From: Alphaproteobacteria bacterium | GTDB lineage: Bacteria > Pseudomonadota > Alphaproteobacteria > Rickettsiales > UBA998 | DNA: 45,419 bases | NCBI GenBank assembly: GCA_021730835.1 | Contig: JAKFYP010000056.1 | Span: 1 to 45,419 of the forward strand | Direction of reading: 5' to 3' | Part shown: one piece after another, positions 11,294 through 39,604 of the stretch | How the letters are laid out: every line of letters starts with the position of its first letter | Position numbering within the stretch: the first letter of the stretch is position 1 | The notes under the pieces: generated by a model | The model's input: only the letters and a program-made list of their open reading frames with translations | Database searches by the model: none | Told to the model about the DNA's origin: nothing | Program-made: the position numbers and the translations under genes

Positions 11294-11353
11294 TTTTCGT
11301 TGCGCTCACCTTGTGGCGATTGTATGGCATGGCCACAGAAAGACAATGAAAAT

Positions 11354-12691
11354 ATGGTAACACGATCTGATACGATTTTTGCTCCGGCAACCGCACCGGG
11401 CCGGTCAGGCGTGGCGGTGGTGCGCCTCTCCGGGCCGGATACCGCGCAGGCATTGGCGATGCTGGGTGTCAGCCCCCTGCCCCATCCGCGTATGGCGACG
11501 CTGAAAAAGCTGAAACATTCCTCCGGCGGGATAATAGACACCGCACTAGTGTTATGGTTTCCGGAGCCGGGAAGCTTTACAGGCGAAGATGTGGCGGAGC
11601 TGCATGTGCATGGTAGTCGAGCCGTGCTTACCGAATTGCTCGAAACACTCGGTAAAATGCCGAGCTTAAGAATGGCGGAAGCCGGGGAATTTGCGAGGCG
11701 GGCTTTTTTGTCAGGCAAGATGGATCTGACCGAGATCGAGGGACTGGCTGATTTGATTGATGCCCAGACGGCAATGCAAAAATCTCAGGCGCTACGCCAG
11801 ATGCAGGGAGAACTGGGTCGGGTATGCAGCCGGATGCGTGAGCAACTGGTTGCCGTCAGGGCCGAAATTGAGGCGTATCTCGATTTTCCTGACGAGGATT
11901 TGCCGCCGCACCGGCTGAATGATCTCAATAACCACTTGCTGGAGCTGCAAGGTGAGGTGAGTAGATTGCTGGATAGGGGCAAAAAAGGGGAGCGTATTCG
12001 GGAAGGCATTCAGATAGCAATCATTGGTGCGCCTAATGTCGGCAAATCATCGCTGCTGAATTGTCTGGCGGGGCGTGAAGCGGCGATTGTTTCTTGCGAG
12101 GCCGGAACGACCCGTGATGTCATCGAGCTTTCGATGGATCTGGAAGGTTACCCGGTGGTTCTGTACGACACGGCTGGTTTACGGGAGGGTGTGACAAATG
12201 TAGAACAGGAGGGGATTCGGCGTGCCAAAATAAAGGCAGGCGAGTCAGACATGCGATTATTGGTATTGGATGCGGGTCGTTCTTTGGCAGAACAAAATGA
12301 TGGATTCTCATCGCTTAAACAAGATGATGTGGTAATTTGGAATAAAACTGATATTTTCCCACAATATATAGTAGATGTGGGTGAGTATCCTTATCAGTGC
12401 AAAATCTCGCTAAAAGAACAAAAGGGGGTTGAGTCATTGCTTTTCATGATTAAAAAGCGTATGGATGACGGTTTTCACTCAATGAACGATGTGGTGGTGA
12501 CGCGAGAGCGACATCGTTTGGCTTTCATCTCCTGTCGAGAAAGTATCGAGTCGGCCATGAAAACCCCATTTTTAGAGATAAAAGGAGAAGAAATTCGTCG
12601 TGCGATGCAAGCGCTGGGTAGTATTACCGGTGTTATTCATCTTGAAGAAGTGTTAGATCAGCTCTTCCGATCCTTTTGTATCGGAAAATAA
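11354..12691 (+). CDS. mnmE: tRNA modification GTPase MnmE
   Basis: It has [22 protein letters not shown] at the N-terminus, G1 [13 protein letters not shown]3 DTAGLRE and the C-terminal FCIGK motif. The ORF opens at 11300, but the Met at 11354 matches the family N-terminus. Confidence 0.93.
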
Positions 12692-12704
12692 ACCGTAGTA
12701 ATCC

Positions 12705-12720
12705 TGTTCCACGTGAAACA
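12705..12720. promoter_or_regulatory. parS: parS centromere-like site (ParB binding)
   Basis: It is an exact TGTTCCACGTGAAACA, the canonical chromosomal parS 16-mer. It lies in the mnmE-mnmG intergenic spacer, about 3.3 kb upstream of parB. Confidence 0.85.
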
Positions 12721-12726
12721 ATAAAA

Positions 12727-14595
12727 ATGTCACAGCAATCATACGAGATAATTGTCATAGGGGGCGGTCACGCCGGATGTGAAGCCGCTGCTGCTGCCGC
12801 CAGAATGGGGATGTCTACCCTTCTTCTGACTCAGAATAAAAGTAAGGTTGGTGTGATGTCCTGTAACCCGGCCATTGGAGGTGTAGGTAAGGGAACCCTG
12901 GTCAGAGAGATTGATGCATTGGATGGTGTGATGGGTCGTGCCATAGATCGGGCAGGTATTCATTACAAAATGCTCAACAGTAGTAAAGGCCCGGCGGTCT
13001 GGGGACCAAGAGCACAGGCTGATCGAGCTTTATATCGTCAGGCCGTTCAAGATATTCTAATGGAATATAAGTCGCTTACGGTGATTTCCAAATCGGTTGA
13101 GGATATTTTAGTGTTACAAAACGCTGTGTGTGGCGTTGAATGCCAAAGTGGCGAGCAGTATTTGGCTAACGCTGTGATCCTTACTACAGGCACTTTTTTG
13201 AATGGGCTAATTCATATTGGAACGCATCAGGAGCATGCAGGGAGAATCGGCGAGCCTCCCTCCGTTGGGCTGTCTAATACACTGAAAAAATTAAATTTCT
13301 CTTTGGGCCGGTTGAAAACCGGAACCCCTCCTCGTCTGGACGGTAAAACTATTGATTGGTCAGTGGTGGAGTTGCAGCCGGGTGACGCAAAACCCGCTCC
13401 TTTTTCCTATCTTACCGATAGCATTACAATCCCGCAAATCGCTTGTGGTATTACGCGAACGACGCCTGATACCCATCGTATTATTAGAGAAAACTTACAT
13501 CAGGCTCCCATGTATTCCGGGCAAATTGCTGGCACGGGGCCGCGCTATTGTCCCTCGATAGAGGATAAAATTGTGCGCTTCTCTGGCCGGGAATCTCATC
13601 AGATTTTTCTTGAGCCTGAGGGTTTAGATGATGATACAGTCTATCCAAATGGTATATCTACCTCCCTTCCTAAAGAGATTCAGCTAGAGATTCTCAGGAC
13701 TATTCCGGGACTGGAGCAAACCACAATGTTGCGCCCGGGGTATGCCGTGGAGTATGATTTTGTGGATCCCAGAGAACTTTACTCAACGCTGGAGACTAAG
13801 AAAGTTGCAGGTTTGTACCTCGCCGGGCAAATAAATGGGACAACAGGGTATGAAGAAGCGGCAGGACAGGGTATCATTGCCGGTATAAATGCGGCTCTGA
13901 AAGTGCAAAAGCGCCCTCCTTATGTCTGCAAGCGTTCGGATGCGTATATTGGCGTTATGATTGATGATCTGGTGACGCATGGCACGCGTGAGCCATACCG
14001 CATGTTTACTTGCCGTGCTGAGTTTCGGATTTCTTTGCGGGCAGATAATGCGGATCAGCGCCTGACGGCAGCAGGTATTGAGCTGGGTGTGGTTTCTCTA
14101 CTGCGGCAACAGACATATGAACGAAAGCAAGCGAGTTTGTCTCAAGCAAGGCAGCTTTTTAACGCCAGCCAGATATCGCCAAGTGCATTGAAGCGGCATG
14201 GAATTCACGTGAATCAGGATGGTGTGAAACGTAGTGCCGACCAGCTTATTGTGCAGCCTGATATTCAAAAAGACGCGCTATTTGCTATCTGGCCAGATTT
14301 GGCTACCATTCCTGAAGATATTTTTGCGGCAATTACTTATGACGCAATTTACGCAGGTTATCTGGAGCGTCAGCAGCGGGATATTGAGTTGTTTAACCGC
14401 GATGAGGCACTGGAAATTCCAGAGATACTTGATGTCAATAAGATTGCCGGGCTTTCCAACGAGATACGCGAGAAACTTATGCAGCATAAACCCGCGACAC
14501 TGGGCGTAGCCTCACGTATTCCCGGTATGACGCCAGCCGCACTTTTGCTGCTGCTCGGGCATATTCGCAGCAATAGATTTTCAGCGGCTACCTAG
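12727..14595 (+). CDS. mnmG: tRNA uridine 5-carboxymethylaminomethyl modification enzyme MnmG (GidA)
   Basis: It begins [24 protein letters not shown] (FAD-binding fold) and matches GidA along its length. The Met at 12727 is the likely start (the ORF opens at 12676). Confidence 0.95.
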
Positions 14596-14596
14596 C

Positions 14597-15253
14597 ATGT
14601 TTTCAGGTATTTTATTGCCCCCGGATTGTTCTGTTCCACGTGAAACACACGTTAAATTAGAGGCCTATGAGCGGTTGTTAGTCCGGTGGCAGAAGAAGAT
14701 AAATCTTGTCAGCCCAAAATCTATGTCGGATTTGCGAAATCGCCACATTGCGGATTCAATGCAATTGCTATCTTATCTACCGAAAGACCCACATATTCGT
14801 ATTGCTGATATTGGTTCCGGAGCCGGATTTCCAGGGCTGGTACTCGCCATGTGCGGCTATAAGGACGTACATCTTATTGAAAGTGATAGAAAAAAGGTAG
14901 AGTTTTTGCGTGAAGTGGCACGGATAACGCAGATACAGGTGACGATTCATCATGCCCGGGCCGAAGATGTTTCGCTGGCGGATATATCGGTATTTACCTC
15001 AAGGGCTTGTAGTAATCTGCTTAAGCTACTCTACATATTGTACCAAAATTGGCAAGAAAACGCATTTTGCCTCTTTCACAAAGGTGGGACTTATAGTAAA
15101 GAGTTACATGAAGCAGAAAAGGACTGGGATTTTCAGTGTACCGCTCTGCCCAGCCGGACCGATCCGCAAGGAGTTATCCTCAACCTCTCTCATATAGTTC
15201 CAAAACATGCCAAGAATCATTGCAGTCGTAAATCAAAAGGGGGGGGTCGGTAA
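14597..15253 (+). CDS. rsmG: 16S rRNA (guanine527-N7)-methyltransferase RsmG (GidB)
   Basis: It has the SAM-binding motif DIGSGAGFPGLVLA. Size (218 aa) and position between mnmG and parA fit. Confidence 0.9.
   Translation: MFSGILLPPDCSVPRETHVKLEAYERLLVRWQKKINLVSPKSMSDLRNRHIADSMQLLSYLPKDPHIRIADIGSGAGFPGLVLAMCGYKDVHLIESDRKKVEFLREVARITQIQVTIHHARAEDVSLADISVFTSRACSNLLKLLYILYQNWQENAFCLFHKGGTYSKELHEAEKDWDFQCTALPSRTDPQGVILNLSHIVPKHAKNHCSRKSKGGGR
14632..14647. promoter_or_regulatory. parS: parS centromere-like site (ParB binding), inside the 5' end of rsmG
   Basis: A second exact TGTTCCACGTGAAACA. It shares the preceding c with the first copy. Confidence 0.85.
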
Positions 15254-32783: not shown

Positions 32784-33203
32784 TCAGTGCCCCGCTGCCA
32801 GCAGGTTTTTGATGGTAGCCGGAAAAGAAGAGCGGATTGGTTGAGCCTTGACCCGAAGCCATGCGCACAGGCCTGATTCCATTTGCATGATGGTATCGTT
32901 GAGCATGCGGGCGGTCGGGCAGGAAAGTCGGAACGTATGAATATGACCGCTGGCGTCGGAAAGCGCCATGACGCCGAACTCTTCGGGATTGGAGCTGGTT
33001 TCATTATCCAGCGCAAAATCAGTGGCATGAAATACGGAATTCAGTTCGCGGTACAGTTCAAGCGGATCTTCCGGGCCGTGGGTGTGTGCGTCAACGATGA
33101 CAAGCGCTTCTCCGTTCTTGAAATTGGTCATATGCTTGAAATGATCGAGGCATAGTTCACGACGCCATTCCTTAACAATCTCCAGGGCATCTTCTTCGAG
33201 CAT
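32784..33203 (-). CDS. hypothetical protein (139 aa)
   Basis: An ORF with reasonable codon composition and no recognisable motif. It is convergent with the HlyD gene (5-nt gap) and is transcribed divergently from astB across a very AT-rich spacer. Confidence 0.45.
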   Translation of the reverse strand: MLEEDALEIVKEWRRELCLDHFKHMTNFKNGEALVIVDAHTHGPEDPLELYRELNSVFHATDFALDNETSSNPEEFGVMALSDASGHIHTFRLSCPTARMLNDTIMQMESGLCAWLRVKAQPIRSSFPATIKNLLAAGH

Positions 33204-33321
33204 GATCTGATCCTTATTTGTTAAATAAATGTTTAATCGTACTTTTCATGATTACTGAATACTATTATATCAATAATTATACAAATGTTCCACATTATTT
33301 TAACTATTTATTAATACTAAC
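33204..33321. promoter_or_regulatory. extremely AT-rich divergent intergenic region (probable promoters for astB and the 139-aa ORF)
   Basis: A hand count of 33221-33320 gives 17% G+C, against about 60% in the flanking genes. It lies between two divergently oriented start codons. Confidence 0.35.
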
Positions 33322-34668
33322 ATGTATACATACGCGGAACTTCAGTGTGACGGCCTGATTGGGCCTACACACCATTATGCCGGATTGAGCCGAGGGAACG
33401 TGGCTTCCCTCACCAATGCCGGCAGCATTGCCTACCCGAAACAGGCGGCCCTGCAGGGGCTGGAGAAAATGCGGCTGGTTGCTTCTCTGGGTATCCCGCA
33501 GATCGTCTTGCCGCCGCCGCCCCGCCCCAACCTCGTCTTGCTGCGGCATCTGGGGTTTACCGGCTCAACGGAGACGATGCTGGCGGCTGCATGGCGTGAA
33601 AATCCGCAGCTTTTGAGTGCCGTCTGGTCGGCTTCGGGCATGTGGGCCGCCAATATGGCCACGGTTTCCCCGGCTTGCGATACGGCTGACGGGAAGCTGC
33701 ACATGACGCCCGCCAATCTGGCCAGTACGCTGCATCGCCATCAGGAGGCCTTATTTTCTCACCGGCTGCTGACGCGGGTTTTCGGGGAGGTGGGGGTTAT
33801 CCATGCGCCTCTGCCTGCCTGTGTGCCCTATACGGATGAAGGGGCGGCCAATCATATGCGCCTGAGCGCTCAGTACGGGCAGAGAGGGGTTGAGATATTC
33901 GTCTACGGGCGAGAGGCGGCGGATGCCCCTTCGGCCTGCCCGCAGCGTTTCCCGGCGCGCCAGACGCGTGAAGCCTGTGAGACTATCGCTCGTCTGCACG
34001 GATTGCCGGAAGAACGGCGTCTGTTCGTGCGTCAGAGCGCCGGTGCGATTGATGCCGGGGTGTTTCATAACGATGTGATTGCCATGAGCAATGGTCCGCT
34101 CCTGATCTATCATGAGCTTGCCTTTACCGATGAGGCGGTATTTTTGGAGGAACTGACGACAAAATTGCCGCAAGTGCAACGGATTCGTATCCGTGAGGCG
34201 GATTTGCCGCTGGCGGAGGCGGTACGGAGTTATTTTTTCAATTCTCAGATGTTGAGCCTGCCCGGCTCGGAAGAGATGGTAATCATTGGCCCGGTGGAGT
34301 GCCGGAAAAGTGAAGCAGCCCGCACAGCGCTGGAGCGGCTGAAGCAAAGCCCGGACAATCCGGTGCGCGAGGTGCATTACCTCGATATACGGGAAAGCAT
34401 GAAAAATGGAGGAGGGCCTGCCTGCCTGCGTTTGCGGGTAGTCATTGACGAAATATCTCTGCAAAAACTCCCGCAGGGCATATTCATGAATGATGCCTTA
34501 TACGAAAAACTGCATCACTATATCTCCGTGCACTATCCGGAAAAGCTGGAAGTTTCTGATTGTATCCGCTCGGGGCTGATTTTTTCCTGTCAGGAAATAT
34601 ATAAGCAACTTGAAACTATTCTGGGGCTGGAGGGGATGTATGATAATATGGAAAGCGAATTTCTGTAA
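33322..34668 (+). CDS. astB: N-succinylarginine dihydrolase
   Basis: It matches E. coli AstB along its length: DGLIGPTHHYAGLS, DEGAANHMRL, FPARQTREA, GVFHNDVIA and the catalytic-Cys motif NGGGPACLRLRVV. Confidence 0.9.
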   Translation: MYTYAELQCDGLIGPTHHYAGLSRGNVASLTNAGSIAYPKQAALQGLEKMRLVASLGIPQIVLPPPPRPNLVLLRHLGFTGSTETMLAAAWRENPQLLSAVWSASGMWAANMATVSPACDTADGKLHMTPANLASTLHRHQEALFSHRLLTRVFGEVGVIHAPLPACVPYTDEGAANHMRLSAQYGQRGVEIFVYGREAADAPSACPQRFPARQTREACETIARLHGLPEERRLFVRQSAGAIDAGVFHNDVIAMSNGPLLIYHELAFTDEAVFLEELTTKLPQVQRIRIREADLPLAEAVRSYFFNSQMLSLPGSEEMVIIGPVECRKSEAARTALERLKQSPDNPVREVHYLDIRESMKNGGGPACLRLRVVIDEISLQKLPQGIFMNDALYEKLHHYISVHYPEKLEVSDCIRSGLIFSCQEIYKQLETILGLEGMYDNMESEFL

Positions 34669-34896
34669 TTTTTAGGTTATGGAAAAATGATGGCCCTTAA
34701 GATCATCATATATGATGTTGAAAATCAAAGTTTTATATATCGTATGGCCGATTTGCTTTATGAGTATACATAAACTGAATGGGCTATAAGAAGATGAGCA
34801 TCCCACAGGTGGATGCTGTATCTTTATGGTTGGCCAGCGGATGCTGGCAGGGGAAGGTTGGGAGGGGGGATGATGCAAAGGTCTCTCTATAAGCGG

Positions 34897-35847: not shown

Positions 35848-36891
35848 TCAGGGAAAAACCGGCACATGCCGGAGGCCGGTTGTCTCGTCAAAACCGAACA
35901 TCAGATTCATATTTTGAACGGCCTGCCCGGAAGCGCCTTTAACCAGATTATCAATTGCGCTGACGAGGATAGCATCTTCCGGCCTGCGTCCGGCGAACAG
36001 GTTGATACGGCAGGTATTTGTGCCGGTCACATGCTGTGTTTGAGGATACGCACCCTCGGGCAGGATGGTCACGAACGGCTCGGCCCGGTAAGCCCGCTCA
36101 AGGTAAGCCCGTGCCTGTTGCAGCGTATAGCCGTTCAGGCGGACATAGATGGTTGCCAGCATGCCGCGCTTCATCGGCACGAGATGCGGAGTAAAGTGCA
36201 CCTCGACGGGCCGTTCCGCTGCCCAGGAAAGCACCTGCTCGATTTCGGGCCGGTGACGATGCTGGCCGACGCCGTAAGCGCTGAAGCCGCCCTCAATCTC
36301 GCAAAATAACAGGTTGCGCTTCATGCTCCGCCCCGCTCCGGTGACGCCGGACTTGGCGTCAATAATGATCGGATCCGGACAGATCATGCCCTCCTGCAGA
36401 AGCGGCAGGAGTGGCAACAGGGAGACAGTCGGGTAGCAGCCGGGATTGGCGACCAGCCGGGCGGAAGCGATTGCCTCACGGACATACTCGCTCAGGCCAT
36501 AGACGGCGCTTCTCTGAAGCTGTGGAGCGCGGTGTTCATGGCCGTACCATTCGGCGTAAAGCGCCGGATTAAACAGCCGGAAATCAGCCGAGAGATCAAC
36601 GATGCGCACATGGCCGGGCAGGGCGGCGATGATTTCCTGCGTCGTGCCGTGAGGCAGGCAGCAGAATACGAGTTGCACCCCGTTGAAATCCACCTCCTCG
36701 ATTTTCACCAGCGGCGGCAGAGCGAGACCGTGCAGATGCGGAAAACTCTCCTCTATGGGCTGTCCGGCCTGAGAATCGGCGGTCAGGGCAGCGATTTTTA
36801 CATACGGATGATGATGCAGCAGGCGCAGCAATTCCGCACCGGTATAACCGCTCGCGCCGAGAATGACAGTTGGGATGGGAGTGGGGGTCAT
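35848..36891 (-). CDS. argC: N-acetyl-gamma-glutamyl-phosphate reductase
   Basis: It has the N-terminal ILGASGYTGAELLRLL and the active-site motif NPGCYPT. 347 aa. Confidence 0.93.
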   Translation of the reverse strand: MTPTPIPTVILGASGYTGAELLRLLHHHPYVKIAALTADSQAGQPIEESFPHLHGLALPPLVKIEEVDFNGVQLVFCCLPHGTTQEIIAALPGHVRIVDLSADFRLFNPALYAEWYGHEHRAPQLQRSAVYGLSEYVREAIASARLVANPGCYPTVSLLPLLPLLQEGMICPDPIIIDAKSGVTGAGRSMKRNLLFCEIEGGFSAYGVGQHRHRPEIEQVLSWAAERPVEVHFTPHLVPMKRGMLATIYVRLNGYTLQQARAYLERAYRAEPFVTILPEGAYPQTQHVTGTNTCRINLFAGRRPEDAILVSAIDNLVKGASGQAVQNMNLMFGFDETTGLRHVPVFP

Positions 36892-36898
36892 ATTATGA

Positions 36899-37321
36899 TT
36901 ACTTTTCCCTTAAAGCAGTAATAACCGTACCAATAAGAACAACCATAAATAATATAAAGGCTGTTGTCAGGGTGGTATAATAACCCGCGCCTGATAATAA
37001 GAAATCAGGTATAACCCCGAACCAGATCACTAAAATCAACAGACCAAGCAAGGAAAGCAAGGGAATGGTATACGCGCTATAAAAAAGAAGATGTCTCGGC
37101 CTTGCGTGCCATTTTGCTTTTCTTATAAATGCTTCAGCAATTTCTTTTGCTTCCTGATCAAGAGTTCCTGAAGCGATCATCAAGGCAATAAAATCATTTA
37201 TATTTTTCTGAGATGGTTCTTTTCCTGAGTTAGCCTTTTTATATTGTTCCTTAAACTCCGCGATTCTCCTTTCATGCAAAAGGGTAATAATGTACGGCCT
37301 CAACTCCTCTGCCAGCGACAT
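36899..37321 (-). CDS. small membrane protein: soluble helical N-domain plus two C-terminal TM helices (hypothetical)
   Basis: 140 aa. Residues 1-80 are charged and helical, followed by LLFYSAYTIPLLSLLGLLILVIWFGVI and YYTTLTTAFILFMVVLIGTVITAL. The region is low in G+C. The ATG lies 1 nt after the stop of the upstream Dcd-like ORF. Confidence 0.6.
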   Translation of the reverse strand: MSLAEELRPYIITLLHERRIAEFKEQYKKANSGKEPSQKNINDFIALMIASGTLDQEAKEIAEAFIRKAKWHARPRHLLFYSAYTIPLLSLLGLLILVIWFGVIPDFLLSGAGYYTTLTTAFILFMVVLIGTVITALREK

Positions 37322-37322
37322 T

Positions 37323-38045
37323 TTAAGTCAATCCGAGTAATTTTTTCTGTTCTTCGGAGAGATGATTGATAAAATCTCTGGATTTTTCAGTAATCCGCGT
37401 ATTTAAAAATTCTATAAGTTGATTCTTGGTCGTCCGGCTTCCGAACTTCTGAAAACACTCGATAAATTCTTTGTCTTCCGAAAGTCTGGAAAGAGTAATA
37501 TTTTTTTCCGCATGATATTTCGCTTCCGCTCGTTTGCTGTAATCTTTGAGTACGGCTTTTGCTTCCGACAGCACGAGTTGGCAGATTCGCATACCGGGAA
37601 TCAGATGAAAGGAAAAACTTCCGACATTATGAATGGCAATCGGTAGCTTTCCTTCATAACCCGGATTGATATAGCTCGAAAGCCCGACATTGACACCTAA
37701 TCGAATAACGCTGTTGCGATTTTGTATATTGCCCACCAGCTTTTCCGATAGGCTCAAAGTTTCTTTAATCTGCCCCAGAATGAATTCTCCGGGTTGCAAT
37801 ATATAGCCATCGTTTCCCAGGTGCGCGTGGGTAAAATATTCTTTCAATTGCGTCGAATCAGGATAGGGCGCATTGATCTCCATATTTTTCTTAGGAATCT
37901 CAATTTGCTCATCCAACGTCAAATCTACAGAAGACGGTTGGATATTCTCAACCTGGAAAGGGGAAATATGTAATTCTTTTTGATAGATTCTCTCTAGAAT
38001 CTTCATATCCGAGAGCACACTCATAACTACCCCAAGAAATAACAT
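37323..38045 (-). CDS. dCTP deaminase/dUTPase-fold protein with a C-terminal extension (divergent, possibly non-catalytic)
   Basis: It aligns by eye with E. coli Dcd across the fold: LSDMKILERI, SSVDLTL, ILQPGEFILGQIKETLSL, NRNSVIRLGV, INPGYEGKLPIAIHN, IPGMRICQLVL and EAKYHAEK. An extra tail of about 55 aa follows. The Met at 38024 (MSVLSDMKIL), preceded by tggggtag, is the more likely start. Confidence 0.7.
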   Translation of the reverse strand: MLFLGVVMSVLSDMKILERIYQKELHISPFQVENIQPSSVDLTLDEQIEIPKKNMEINAPYPDSTQLKEYFTHAHLGNDGYILQPGEFILGQIKETLSLSEKLVGNIQNRNSVIRLGVNVGLSSYINPGYEGKLPIAIHNVGSFSFHLIPGMRICQLVLSEAKAVLKDYSKRAEAKYHAEKNITLSRLSEDKEFIECFQKFGSRTTKNQLIEFLNTRITEKSRDFINHLSEEQKKLLGLT

Positions 38046-38155
38046 CTGGCAGATTTAGTCTTACAGACTACTATATATAGCGTCTATAAGAAAAATATTT
38101 TCATAAAATACGAAAACACGAATTTCTTCGGTACGCATCTTATTTATTACGTTAT

Positions 38156-39604
38156 CTAAAACTGGAAATACAAAAACGGTGAGAAGGACTGAGCAATCAT
38201 TTTACTGACGCCGACCGCCATCACGGCCACCACGGCGCATTGTCCGGCCACCGAGACGCGATACGCCCAGGTCGGCCCGAGATGCCCGGCCTGCACATTG
38301 AAATGCCGCATGCGCCAAGGAGCAAGAAACACAATGACCCAGCCACCCGCCAGTGCTGCCAGATGCAGCGGCGTAATCTGCCAGACCAGCGTATCGGCGA
38401 TACCGAAACCGTTAAGCCCGAGCATGCCTTCGTAGAAGCCAAACGCGGTGCTGACATTGGGAGCGCGAAACAACACCCAGCCGATCATCACCATCAGCAG
38501 GGTCAGCGGCAAGGCCAGCAGGCGCGGATAAGGCGCGCCGCCCCTGCCGCCGATGAGGCGCTCCAACGCCAGAATCGCCCCGTGCCAGGTTCCCCAGAGC
38601 ACGAATGTCCAGTTCGCACCGTGCCACGCGCCGCCTAGAATCATGGTCAGCAGCAGGTTGATATAGGTGCGTACTTTGCCCTTTTTATTGCCGCCGAGGG
38701 GAATATAGAGATAATCGCGCAGCCAGGTCGAAAGCGAGATATGCCAGCGCCGCCAGAATTCGGTGATTGAGCGGCTAATATAGGGATGGTTGAAGTTCTC
38801 AATGAAGCGGAAACCCATCATCAGCCCGAGTCCGATCGCCATATCGGAATAGCCGGAGAAATCGAAATAAAGCTGGATGCTGTAGGCGAGAATGCCTAGC
38901 CACGCTTCGGAGAAGGAAGGGTTTGCCTGTGCAAACATCATATCAGCGATGGGCGCGACCGTATCGGCGATCATGACTTTTTTACAGAAGCCGACGGAAA
39001 AGCGAATCGCCCCCTCGTTGAATTTATCCAGCGTATGCGTGCGCTCATAGAACTGGTGGGCGACATCCTTATAGCGCAATACCGGCCCGGCGATGAGCTG
39101 AGGAAACAGGGCGATAAAGGCGGCGAAATCAAGAAAACTCGGGGCAATCTCGGCATCGCCGCGATAGACATCAATGACGTAGCTGACCGACTGGAAAACA
39201 TAAAAGGAAATCCCGATCGGCAGGATGACCTTCCATGCTTCCATCGGGGTGAACCCGGCGGCCAATAGCGCGGCATTGAATGAGTCCACGCCGAAATTGA
39301 AATATTTGAAATAGCCCAGCACCAGCAAATTCCCGGCAACGCCAATCGCCAGCCAGCGCTTGCGGTGACGGATTATTTGTTCTTCGGGTGTTTCTGCGGG
39401 CAGGCGACTCATGCGCAGTGTCACCCAGTAGCTGAAATATGTTACGGCGGCAAATAAAGCGAGGAAATCCACCCGCCACCAGCCGTAGAAAATATAGCTG
39501 CCAATGAGGATCACCAGCGATTTGCGTTTAAACGGCACGAGGTAATAGACCACCAGAAACAGCGGCAGAAACAGGAGCAGGAATACGGCGGAGGAGAAAA
39601 CCAT
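38156..39604 (-). CDS. algI: MBOAT-family polysaccharide O-acetyltransferase (AlgI-like)
   Basis: It is multi-TM and has the MBOAT signature FWRRWHISLSTWLRDYLYIPLGG. 482 aa. Confidence 0.88.
   Translation of the reverse strand: MVFSSAVFLLLFLPLFLVVYYLVPFKRKSLVILIGSYIFYGWWRVDFLALFAAVTYFSYWVTLRMSRLPAETPEEQIIRHRKRWLAIGVAGNLLVLGYFKYFNFGVDSFNAALLAAGFTPMEAWKVILPIGISFYVFQSVSYVIDVYRGDAEIAPSFLDFAAFIALFPQLIAGPVLRYKDVAHQFYERTHTLDKFNEGAIRFSVGFCKKVMIADTVAPIADMMFAQANPSFSEAWLGILAYSIQLYFDFSGYSDMAIGLGLMMGFRFIENFNHPYISRSITEFWRRWHISLSTWLRDYLYIPLGGNKKGKVRTYINLLLTMILGGAWHGANWTFVLWGTWHGAILALERLIGGRGGAPYPRLLALPLTLLMVMIGWVLFRAPNVSTAFGFYEGMLGLNGFGIADTLVWQITPLHLAALAGGWVIVFLAPWRMRHFNVQAGHLGPTWAYRVSVAGQCAVVAVMAVGVSKMIAQSFSPFLYFQF

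Follow-up and report, generated by a model that had tools for sequence, protein, structure and literature searches.

Why would a protein with the fold of a dCTP deaminase (Dcd) be encoded a single nucleotide ahead of a small membrane protein, in a block of DNA whose composition breaks sharply from that of its neighbours? The question is raised by a two-gene cassette in contig JAKFYP010000056.1 (assembly GCA_021730835.1; Alphaproteobacteria bacterium, Rickettsiales, UBA998), of which positions 1 to 45,419 of the forward strand were analysed and are referred to here as the window. A first-pass annotation, made from the sequence alone, had put the cassette forward as a candidate defence or abortive-infection (Abi) module. 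We find that the first gene belongs to a subfamily in which both carboxylates that are catalytic in the Dcd/Dut enzymes have been replaced, and that the tail-bearing members of this subfamily are followed, without exception, by the same kind of membrane protein or by its remnant. The reading that we prefer, tentatively and at a little under even chances, is that of a horizontally mobile two-gene conflict module in which a nucleotide-binding pseudo-enzyme would control a membrane effector. The features on which the argument turns are these:

37323-38045, minus strand: gene 1, 240 amino acids (aa), Dcd-fold putative pseudo-deaminase; barrel ~8-165, lid ~166-190, three-helix tail 191-240
37322, minus strand: single base between the genes, following the gene 1 TAA (37325-37323) and preceding the ATG of the partner; sequence CTTAAAATGTCG
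36899-37321, minus strand: gene 2, the partner protein, 140 aa, presumed membrane effector; three-helix cytosolic N-domain 3-73, transmembrane (TM) helices 77-101 and 112-139

Gene 1 has the Dcd fold but not the Dcd catalytic residues

The product of gene 1 matches the Pfam DCD family (1.6e-32; PF22769 at 113 bits against a cutoff of 27), with DCD, DCD_N and dUTPase-type domains being the only ones reported by Pfam, and it scores 118 bits against TIGR02274, the NCBIfam equivalog for dCTP deaminase, whose curated cutoff is 92.8. An AlphaFold2 model built with 37 homologues (predicted local distance difference test, pLDDT, 89.4) contains the Dcd barrel followed by helices at 192-201, 207-227 and 231-236. 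In Foldseek, this model matched 4a6a, 2qxx and 1xs1 at E values of 6e-17 to 3e-15, the best match being the DCD-DUT of Mycobacterium tuberculosis at 6e-17, and it superposes on the M. tuberculosis, Escherichia coli and B. halodurans enzymes with target-normalised TM-scores of 0.85-0.9. The model therefore agrees with the first-pass description of a Dcd/Dut fold with an extra helical tail, and it gives that tail a length of about 50 aa in three helices. No counterpart of the tail was present among the PDB or BFVD matches to gene 1 in the fold searches.

The active site is another matter. The position of the catalytic Glu (E138 in E. coli, E129 in M. tuberculosis and E145 in M. jannaschii) is occupied in gene 1 by Ala137, which in the PDB alignments lies opposite the Glu of the 'LEL' motif in the M. 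tuberculosis and B. halodurans enzymes; in the subfamily profile, the corresponding Val/Ala column falls on the engineered Ala of M. jannaschii E145A. The conserved Asp of the (I/V)D(P/A)G(F/W) motif, which is the motif-III Asp of the Dut superfamily, is Asn127. Neither change is peculiar to this protein. Among 95 relatives recovered from 5.8 billion proteins, the Asp position is Asn in 81, as it also is in every tailed locus, and the Glu position is Val (50), Ala (22), Ile (6), Thr (2), Ser (1) or Leu (1) in the 82 that form the subfamily. About 80 long relatives (225-256 aa) carry the signature INPGY...LPI[V/A/I]I.N, and the 13 short canonical Dcds in the set (174-200 aa) retain both Asp and Glu. 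The phosphate-binding residues Arg110, Ser112 and Arg115, together with Lys176 and Tyr177 of the lid, are invariant or nearly so in the subfamily, and Glu180 is near-invariant. The tail has features of its own, namely an invariant Asp191 and Glu193 and a conserved LS.EQK..LGL motif at the C-terminus.

With the catalytic Glu and the conserved Asp substituted across the whole subfamily, gene 1 is predicted not to deaminate, and nucleotide depletion by deamination is unlikely. The E138A variant of E. coli Dcd is deaminase-dead, and the PDB contains its complex with dCTP; a site without the catalytic Glu should therefore still be able to hold its substrate. The best reading of gene 1 is that of a nucleotide-binding pseudo-enzyme. 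Of the two functions that the first-pass annotation had offered, nucleotide sensing and nucleotide depletion, it is sensing or binding that fits better.

An alternative is that gene 1 is still an enzyme, perhaps a dCTP/dUTP pyrophosphatase or a modified-nucleotide hydrolase acting through Asp191, Glu193 and Glu180 in a non-canonical site, and that gene 2 tethers it to the membrane, with depletion or cleansing of the nucleotide pool as the outcome. The retained Arg, Ser and Arg residues and the Lys-Tyr pair of the lid would suit such an enzyme, as would the new invariant acidic residues in the lid and tail and the TIGR02274 score above cutoff. However, both carboxylates that are catalytic in Dcd and Dut are replaced in all of the approximately 80 subfamily members, the residues that stand in place of the Glu vary and are hydrophobic (V, A, I, T, M), in the manner of a relaxed, non-catalytic site, and a tether to the membrane has no obvious use for an enzyme of the soluble pool. 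We regard this alternative as quite improbable.

The module probably lies outside the functional dCTP deaminase family, because a catalytic residue that defines the family was looked for in gene 1 and is absent. Nevertheless, members of the subfamily (P0002, P0010, P0020, P0045, P0058 and others) score above the TIGR02274 cutoff and are named 'dCTP deaminase' by the Joint Genome Institute (JGI), NCBI and UniRef, which is probably a systematic misannotation of a subfamily with a dead site. Such names could distort metabolic reconstructions of phages and of metagenome-assembled genomes (MAGs).

Gene 2 and its family

The AlphaFold2 model of the partner (48 sequences; pLDDT 92.2) consists of three N-terminal helices and two TM helices, just as expected from the earlier description of a 140-aa protein with a cytosolic N-domain and two C-terminal TM helices. 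Its fold has no match in the PDB (best E 3.8), it falls into no PHROG or PADLOC family, and no Pfam family is found consistently; a weak hit to DUF6404 (E 0.0065) was rejected as chance, being seen in one of 48 family members. A word-indexed protein search with the partner alone returned only the query itself. The family was instead recovered by reading the DNA downstream of Dcd-like homologues, followed by local iteration with hidden Markov models (HMMs). The open reading frames (ORFs) found in this way encode proteins of 137-160 aa with 27-35% identity to the partner and the same architecture. When 1.84 billion cluster representatives were then searched exhaustively with HMMER, 72 family members were found at E <= 0.001, nearly all of them standalone proteins of 120-170 aa. 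Judged from its sequence relatives, gene 2 founds an undescribed membrane-protein family, now defined by these 72 representatives and without a Pfam entry. No homologue of the partner was found in GenBank phage records or PLSDB plasmids, and gene 1, when used as a query against deposited records, gave canonical phage Dcd/Dut matches only.

The two genes form an essentially obligate pair

Loci taken from 185,579 species genomes, from IMG/VR and from JGI metagenomes were put through a local HMM pipeline, and the pairing was counted over 31 distinct variants in a first set and about 40 more metagenome loci. Every tail-bearing Dcd-like locus has Asn at the Asp position and a non-acidic residue at the Glu position, and every one has the partner, or a remnant of it, directly downstream. 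In about 100 canonical dcd loci, there were zero partner-family ORFs above threshold. The first-pass annotation had made its proposal depend on the TM protein being conserved beside Dcd-like genes elsewhere, and it is present in every subfamily locus; the combination of a Dcd fold with a two-TM protein, which had been suspected of being uncatalogued, is a real and conserved architecture that is absent from PADLOC-DB. Divergent clades also lack the Asp and Glu, and in the two that were examined downstream (L188 and L202) a two-TM ORF of about 150 aa follows. Intact pairs outside the window either have overlapping genes, with up to 99 nt shared, or genes that lie 0-8 nt apart. They thus show the arrangement of two small, co-oriented, abutting or overlapping genes inherited together that is used to recognise type II toxin-antitoxin (TA) and Abi-like systems. 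On this evidence, we favour the view that the Dcd-like gene and its partner are a functional and essentially obligate pair.

The members of the pair do not decay equally. The partner is disrupted beside an intact Dcd-like gene in five of the 29 variants that could be evaluated, and the reverse was seen once. The lesions include a frameshift, a stop after 60 aa, an interruption of ~280 nt in Methanothrix (between profile residues ~32 and ~30), a truncation and an apparent IS3 insertion:

Broken partner genes: L007, 8715-9166; L008, 8713-8895; L013, 6830-7484; L025, 1251-1502; L137, 5206-5707

Preferential loss of the partner would fit a costly or toxic effector, albeit in small numbers. It would also fit a pure addiction module, in which gene 2 is the toxin and gene 1 the antitoxin, and whose role is to stabilise carrier elements or restriction-modification (R-M) loci, with no specific anti-phage function. 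The order of the genes, with the antitoxin-like one first, and their overlap are in keeping with this, and other TA modules (HicAB, ParE and PemK) adjoin the pair. However, a fold of 230 aa with strongly conserved ligand-site residues exceeds what a simple antitoxin needs. Furthermore, many TA modules are themselves defence systems, and the idea to that extent overlaps with the conflict module that we prefer. As a separate explanation, we consider addiction improbable.

A cassette of foreign composition

The composition of the cassette sets it apart from the rest of the contig. Its G+C content is 0.396, as against a mean of 0.55 +/- 0.037 and a minimum of 0.45 for all other 1147-nt windows (z = -4.2), and in a scan of the 45-kb window it is the most AT-rich block. 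The G+C content of third codon positions is 0.43 in gene 1 and 0.38 in gene 2, compared with 0.60-0.70 in ten neighbouring genes. These within-contig figures bear out the sharp break that the first-pass annotation had seen in hand counts, which were themselves exact (0.29 for 37321-37420, 0.44 for 37681-37780 and 0.63 for 36601-36700). Its coordinates for two tightly coupled minus-strand ORFs, 1 nt apart, were exact as well, and we could likewise verify that the cassette lies between algI and argC behind an AT-rich upstream spacer. The 1-nt gap between the genes indicates probable translational coupling. Two flanking features bear on how the cassette is expressed:

38025-38155, minus strand: AT-rich upstream spacer (G+C content 0.298) between the algI-like gene and the cassette; presumed promoter/operator region
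36892-36898, minus strand: gap of 7 nt between the partner stop and the argC start, sequence GAAAAGTAATCATAATATGACC, without a terminator

The spacer is given here from the start of gene 1 that we think correct. Homologues begin with MSVLSD, which aligns with Met8 of the window protein, and because of this the true start is probably at Met8 (38024), giving a protein of about 233 aa. Measured upstream of the annotated ORF, the spacer runs from 38046 to 38155 (110 nt) and has a G+C content of 0.29. It contains an imperfect 19-nt palindrome at 38081-38112 (CGTCTATAAGAAAAATATT / AATATTTTCATAAAATACG), which could be an operator. No sigma-70 consensus promoter was found in the spacer at the threshold of the scan, and the terminator scan gave none in the spacer or between the partner gene and argC. 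Direct or inverted flanking repeats and tRNA genes, sought as marks of insertion, gave nothing above chance around the cassette.

Upstream of the spacer lies an AlgI-type MBOAT gene (38156-39604) and downstream of the cassette lies argC (35848-36891). Since only the terminator-free gap of 7 nt separates argC from the partner gene, its transcription now probably passes through the cassette. The insertion probably displaced the promoter that argC had of its own, in which case expression of arginine biosynthesis would have come to depend on a foreign cassette.

Distribution and mobility

The subfamily is rare, with about 23 loci among the 185,579 species genomes, and these are scattered over Methanothrix/Methanotrichaceae, Desulfovibrionaceae, Synergistaceae, several Bacillota, Leptospirales, Spirochaetia, the planctomycete Candidatus Loosdrechtia and one bin of the candidate phyla radiation. 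In 26 of the 26 loci compared, phage genomes included, the G+C content of the pair is below that of its flanks, the difference being 0.025 to 0.285. One Desulfovibrionaceae MAG contains two copies of the pair (L029 and L030; CAYJLO010000166.1 and CAYJLO010000008.1), one of them beside two integrase genes. For one partner variant, the index of an assembly collection lists 156 blocks, and IMG/VR contigs also carry the pair. Judged by composition and distribution, the cassette has been acquired horizontally and the module is mobile, and it links bacterial, archaeal (in the R-M loci of Methanothrix) and phage gene pools.

This distribution bears on the simplest account of the locus, according to which gene 1 is the housekeeping dCTP deaminase of its host and gene 2 is an unrelated neighbour. 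The TIGR02274 score of 118 against 92.8 and the names given to its relatives speak for it. However, gene 1 lacks both the catalytic Glu and the Asp, its composition is foreign, its relatives occur sporadically (the ~23 loci in 185,579 species genomes noted above) and in phages and islands, and its linkage to the partner is obligate. We take the housekeeping account to be effectively refuted.

Genomic contexts

The contexts in which the pair is found are of several kinds, and phage genomes are one of them. The eight displayed loci of the widely indexed partner variant (seven contigs of 30-36 kb and one of 100 kb) are genomes of siphovirus type. In these, the pair always occupies the same slot, between an ArpU/RinA-like late regulator and the small terminase gene (terS), while the replication modules upstream are swapped; the gut is among the sources of such genomes. 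Some of the phages that bear the pair also encode, in the region of the head genes, a Tad2-like protein of the anti-Thoeris sponge family (L125, 14171-14440; L126, 14177-14446).

It could therefore be argued that the module serves phages, whether in superinfection exclusion, in the timing of lysis (as a holin-like, dNTP-gated device; dNTP, deoxynucleoside triphosphate) or as a nucleotide-buffering counter-defence, and that the chromosomal copies are remnants. One clade is indeed widespread in siphophage genomes of about 30-36 kb at the fixed slot between late activator and terS, as well as in IMG/VR contigs, and the partner resembles a holin in its size and its two TM helices. However, no endolysin gene is adjacent in the phages or in the window, most lineages of the pair (those of the Methanothrix R-M loci and the solitary islets) have no phage genes nearby, and no GenBank phage record carries the partner. 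Superinfection exclusion, moreover, is itself a kind of defence and cannot really be separated from the conflict module. As an explanation in its own right, a role in the service of phages seems to us unlikely. A holin/lysis cassette in the strict sense was rejected, the neighbours being argC and algI in the window and the late regulator and terS in the phages, with no lysin adjacent in either.

Other contexts are those of integrative and conjugative elements and of TA modules. In Desulfovibrionaceae, the pair follows two integrase genes and AlpA. A Syntrophomonadaceae-like variant has IS66, an integrase and conjugation genes around it or a ParE/antitoxin pair immediately before it, and in three of these contigs the partner gene is apparently cut by IS3. 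In Synergistaceae, the pair lies between a Fic gene (PADLOC SoFic, 1e-51) and HicAB modules (three pairs), at a distance of 4 kb from an R-M system of the XcyI type, and a single metagenomic contig has a DarA_C/LPD1 polyvalent protein on one side of the pair and a type IIG-like methyltransferase on the other. A clade from the human gut, with Thr at the former Glu position, has a cI-type repressor and a VapE-like primase beside the pair: a DUF1653 gene (83 aa) starts 2 nt after the partner (L178, 9155-9406; L173, 7949-8200), and a divergent HTH_3 repressor and the VapE-like primase follow. The arrangement in this clade suggests that a small element of integrative or satellite-like type has its edge here.

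A further context is that of Methanothrix. In at least 12 non-redundant loci of this type, the pair is directly downstream of a type IIG restriction-methyltransferase of about 1,300 aa with Eco57I, N6_Mtase, MmeI_Mtase and TaqI_C domains (PADLOC REase_MTase_IIG, 1e-80). Fragments of the TaqI_C specificity domain, on the same strand, lie on both sides of the pair, with up to 9-11 in a locus:

TaqI_C fragment arrays: L151, 3766-13674; L018, whole locus; L152, 1-9614; also L015, L016, L020, L024 and L031

Such an array, with the pair nested inside it, looks like a reserve of alternative target-recognition cassettes from which specificity could be switched.

A model for the module

How could a pseudo-enzyme and a membrane protein work together? 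Canonical Dcd and Dut enzymes are trimers, and their C-terminal lid becomes ordered over the bound nucleotide. We propose that gene 1, presumably also a trimer, binds a pyrimidine (deoxy)nucleoside triphosphate without turning it over, its scaffold having been kept and the residues for deamination and for hydrolysis of the Dut type lost. The three-helix cytosolic domain of the partner would bind to the added helices at the C-terminus of gene 1. As the lid leads directly into this new tail, occupancy by the nucleotide would set the position of the tail, and the signal would pass to the N-domain of the partner and from there to the TM hairpin. A change in the dNTP pool, arising from takeover by a phage, from unusual phage nucleotides or from arrest of replication, would release or activate the membrane partner, and the membrane would be compromised. 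The result might be abortive infection, exclusion or, if the module were lost, post-segregational killing.

The conflict module as outlined in the opening paragraph is the broad form of this proposal. A more specific form, possible but doubtful, is that of an immune switch: a Dcd-derived pseudo-enzyme would read the pyrimidine dNTP pool, responding, for instance, to the appearance of dUTP or hydroxymethyl-dCTP or to a collapse of dCTP as a phage takes over the cell, its tail would gate the two-TM effector, and the switch would be exchanged among archaea, bacteria and phages as a means of defence or superinfection exclusion. If the cassette is indeed a conflict system, it would represent a new type of prokaryotic immune sensor, in which a catalytically dead enzyme of nucleotide metabolism serves as a dNTP receptor, and it would open a direct way of studying how cells sense the changes that phages cause in their deoxynucleotide pools.

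Several observations weigh against a conflict module built on a pseudo-enzyme. In the window, as in three further lineages, the pair is a solitary islet between housekeeping genes. The models of PADLOC-DB v2.0.0 gave zero families for the two proteins, with none at E <= 1 for gene 1. The number of PADLOC families hit is 40 among 131 neighbours of the pair and 21 among 129 neighbours of canonical dcd, a difference that is only about two-fold and noisy. The per-locus counts from a comparison with seeds, 19 of 41 against 2 of 77 loci, are biased, as the seeds came from pair loci and related Methanothrix loci were counted separately. Carriage by phages is equally compatible with a role in their service, and the invariant Asp191 and Glu193, with the near-invariant Glu180, in or just after the lid, could supply an alternative catalysis. 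The proposal of a defence module made in the first-pass annotation is thus upheld only in part: the contexts are rich in mobile, defence and TA genes, but the enrichment is modest and much of the family is phage-borne. We regard the defence association of the neighbourhoods as suggestive and not decisive. It should also be borne in mind that several of the rival explanations overlap in practice.

Comparison with known systems

The canonical Dcd and DCD-DUT enzymes (E. coli 1XS1, M. tuberculosis 2QXX and M. jannaschii 1OGH) share with gene 1 their fold, 27-29% identity, the Arg-x-Ser...Arg phosphate-binding motif and the Lys-Tyr motif of the lid. Gene 1 differs from them in having Val, Ala or Ile for Glu and Asn for Asp, a tail of about 50 aa, a two-TM partner and a mobile, AT-rich, sporadic mode of occurrence.

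A defensive 'dCTP deaminase' was reportedly described by Tal et al. in 2022, and the first-pass annotation had started from the premise that enzymes of the dCTP deaminase family act as defences. This premise is mistaken in that it mixes two unrelated families, the defensive enzymes being of the AvcD type and not of the Dcd/Dut type. AvcD, of the AvcID type III TA system, is a deoxycytidylate deaminase (PMC10511110). Like the cassette as we read it, it forms part of a conflict system concerned with deoxycytidine nucleotides and carried on mobile elements. However, AvcD comes from a family that has no relationship to the Dcd/Dut barrel, it is an active enzyme that works by depletion, and it has no TM partner. 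Gene 1 does not belong with these proteins, which are recognised by a catalytic domain of the deoxycytidylate deaminase type and an added N-terminal domain, and the PADLOC model for their system gave no match.

A closer parallel may be found in phages. Phage trimeric Duts are dUTP-controlled switches that act on a partner protein (PMC5593958), and the trimeric dUTPases of staphylococcal phages bind Stl, the repressor of SaPI elements (PMC5593958, PMC4914113). We consider these to be the best mechanistic precedent, by analogy: they belong to the same fold superfamily, they are phage-borne, and a nucleotide-dependent C-terminal element together with an added motif controls the binding of the partner. 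They differ in that they are active enzymes, that their partner is a DNA-binding repressor located on another element, and that their extra element is the internal motif VI, whereas that of gene 1 is a C-terminal helical tail.

Two-gene Abi and TA systems with small membrane effectors are also known, including RexAB, the TM effectors of CBASS, Pycsar and retron systems, and toxins of the GhoST type. These resemble the proposed module in combining a sensor or regulator with a small TM effector, in being compact and mobile, and in lying near R-M or TA genes, but neither protein of the cassette is related to theirs by sequence or fold. The design of a sensor joined to a small TM effector is therefore known; a sensor derived from a nucleotide-metabolism pseudo-enzyme would be unprecedented, and the effector family is undescribed. 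Full-text literature searches gave no description of a Dcd-like/TM pairing; a paper on the prophages of Desulfovibrio piger does no more than name 'dCTP deaminase' as one of their accessory genes.

Other features of the window

Away from the cassette, the window has a second and milder stretch of low G+C content at 11500-15000 (0.47-0.49, against about 0.55), with ORFs at 11300-12691, 12676-14595 and 14597-15253. Short AT-rich intergenic dips are also seen at 33100-33400 and 34600-34800.

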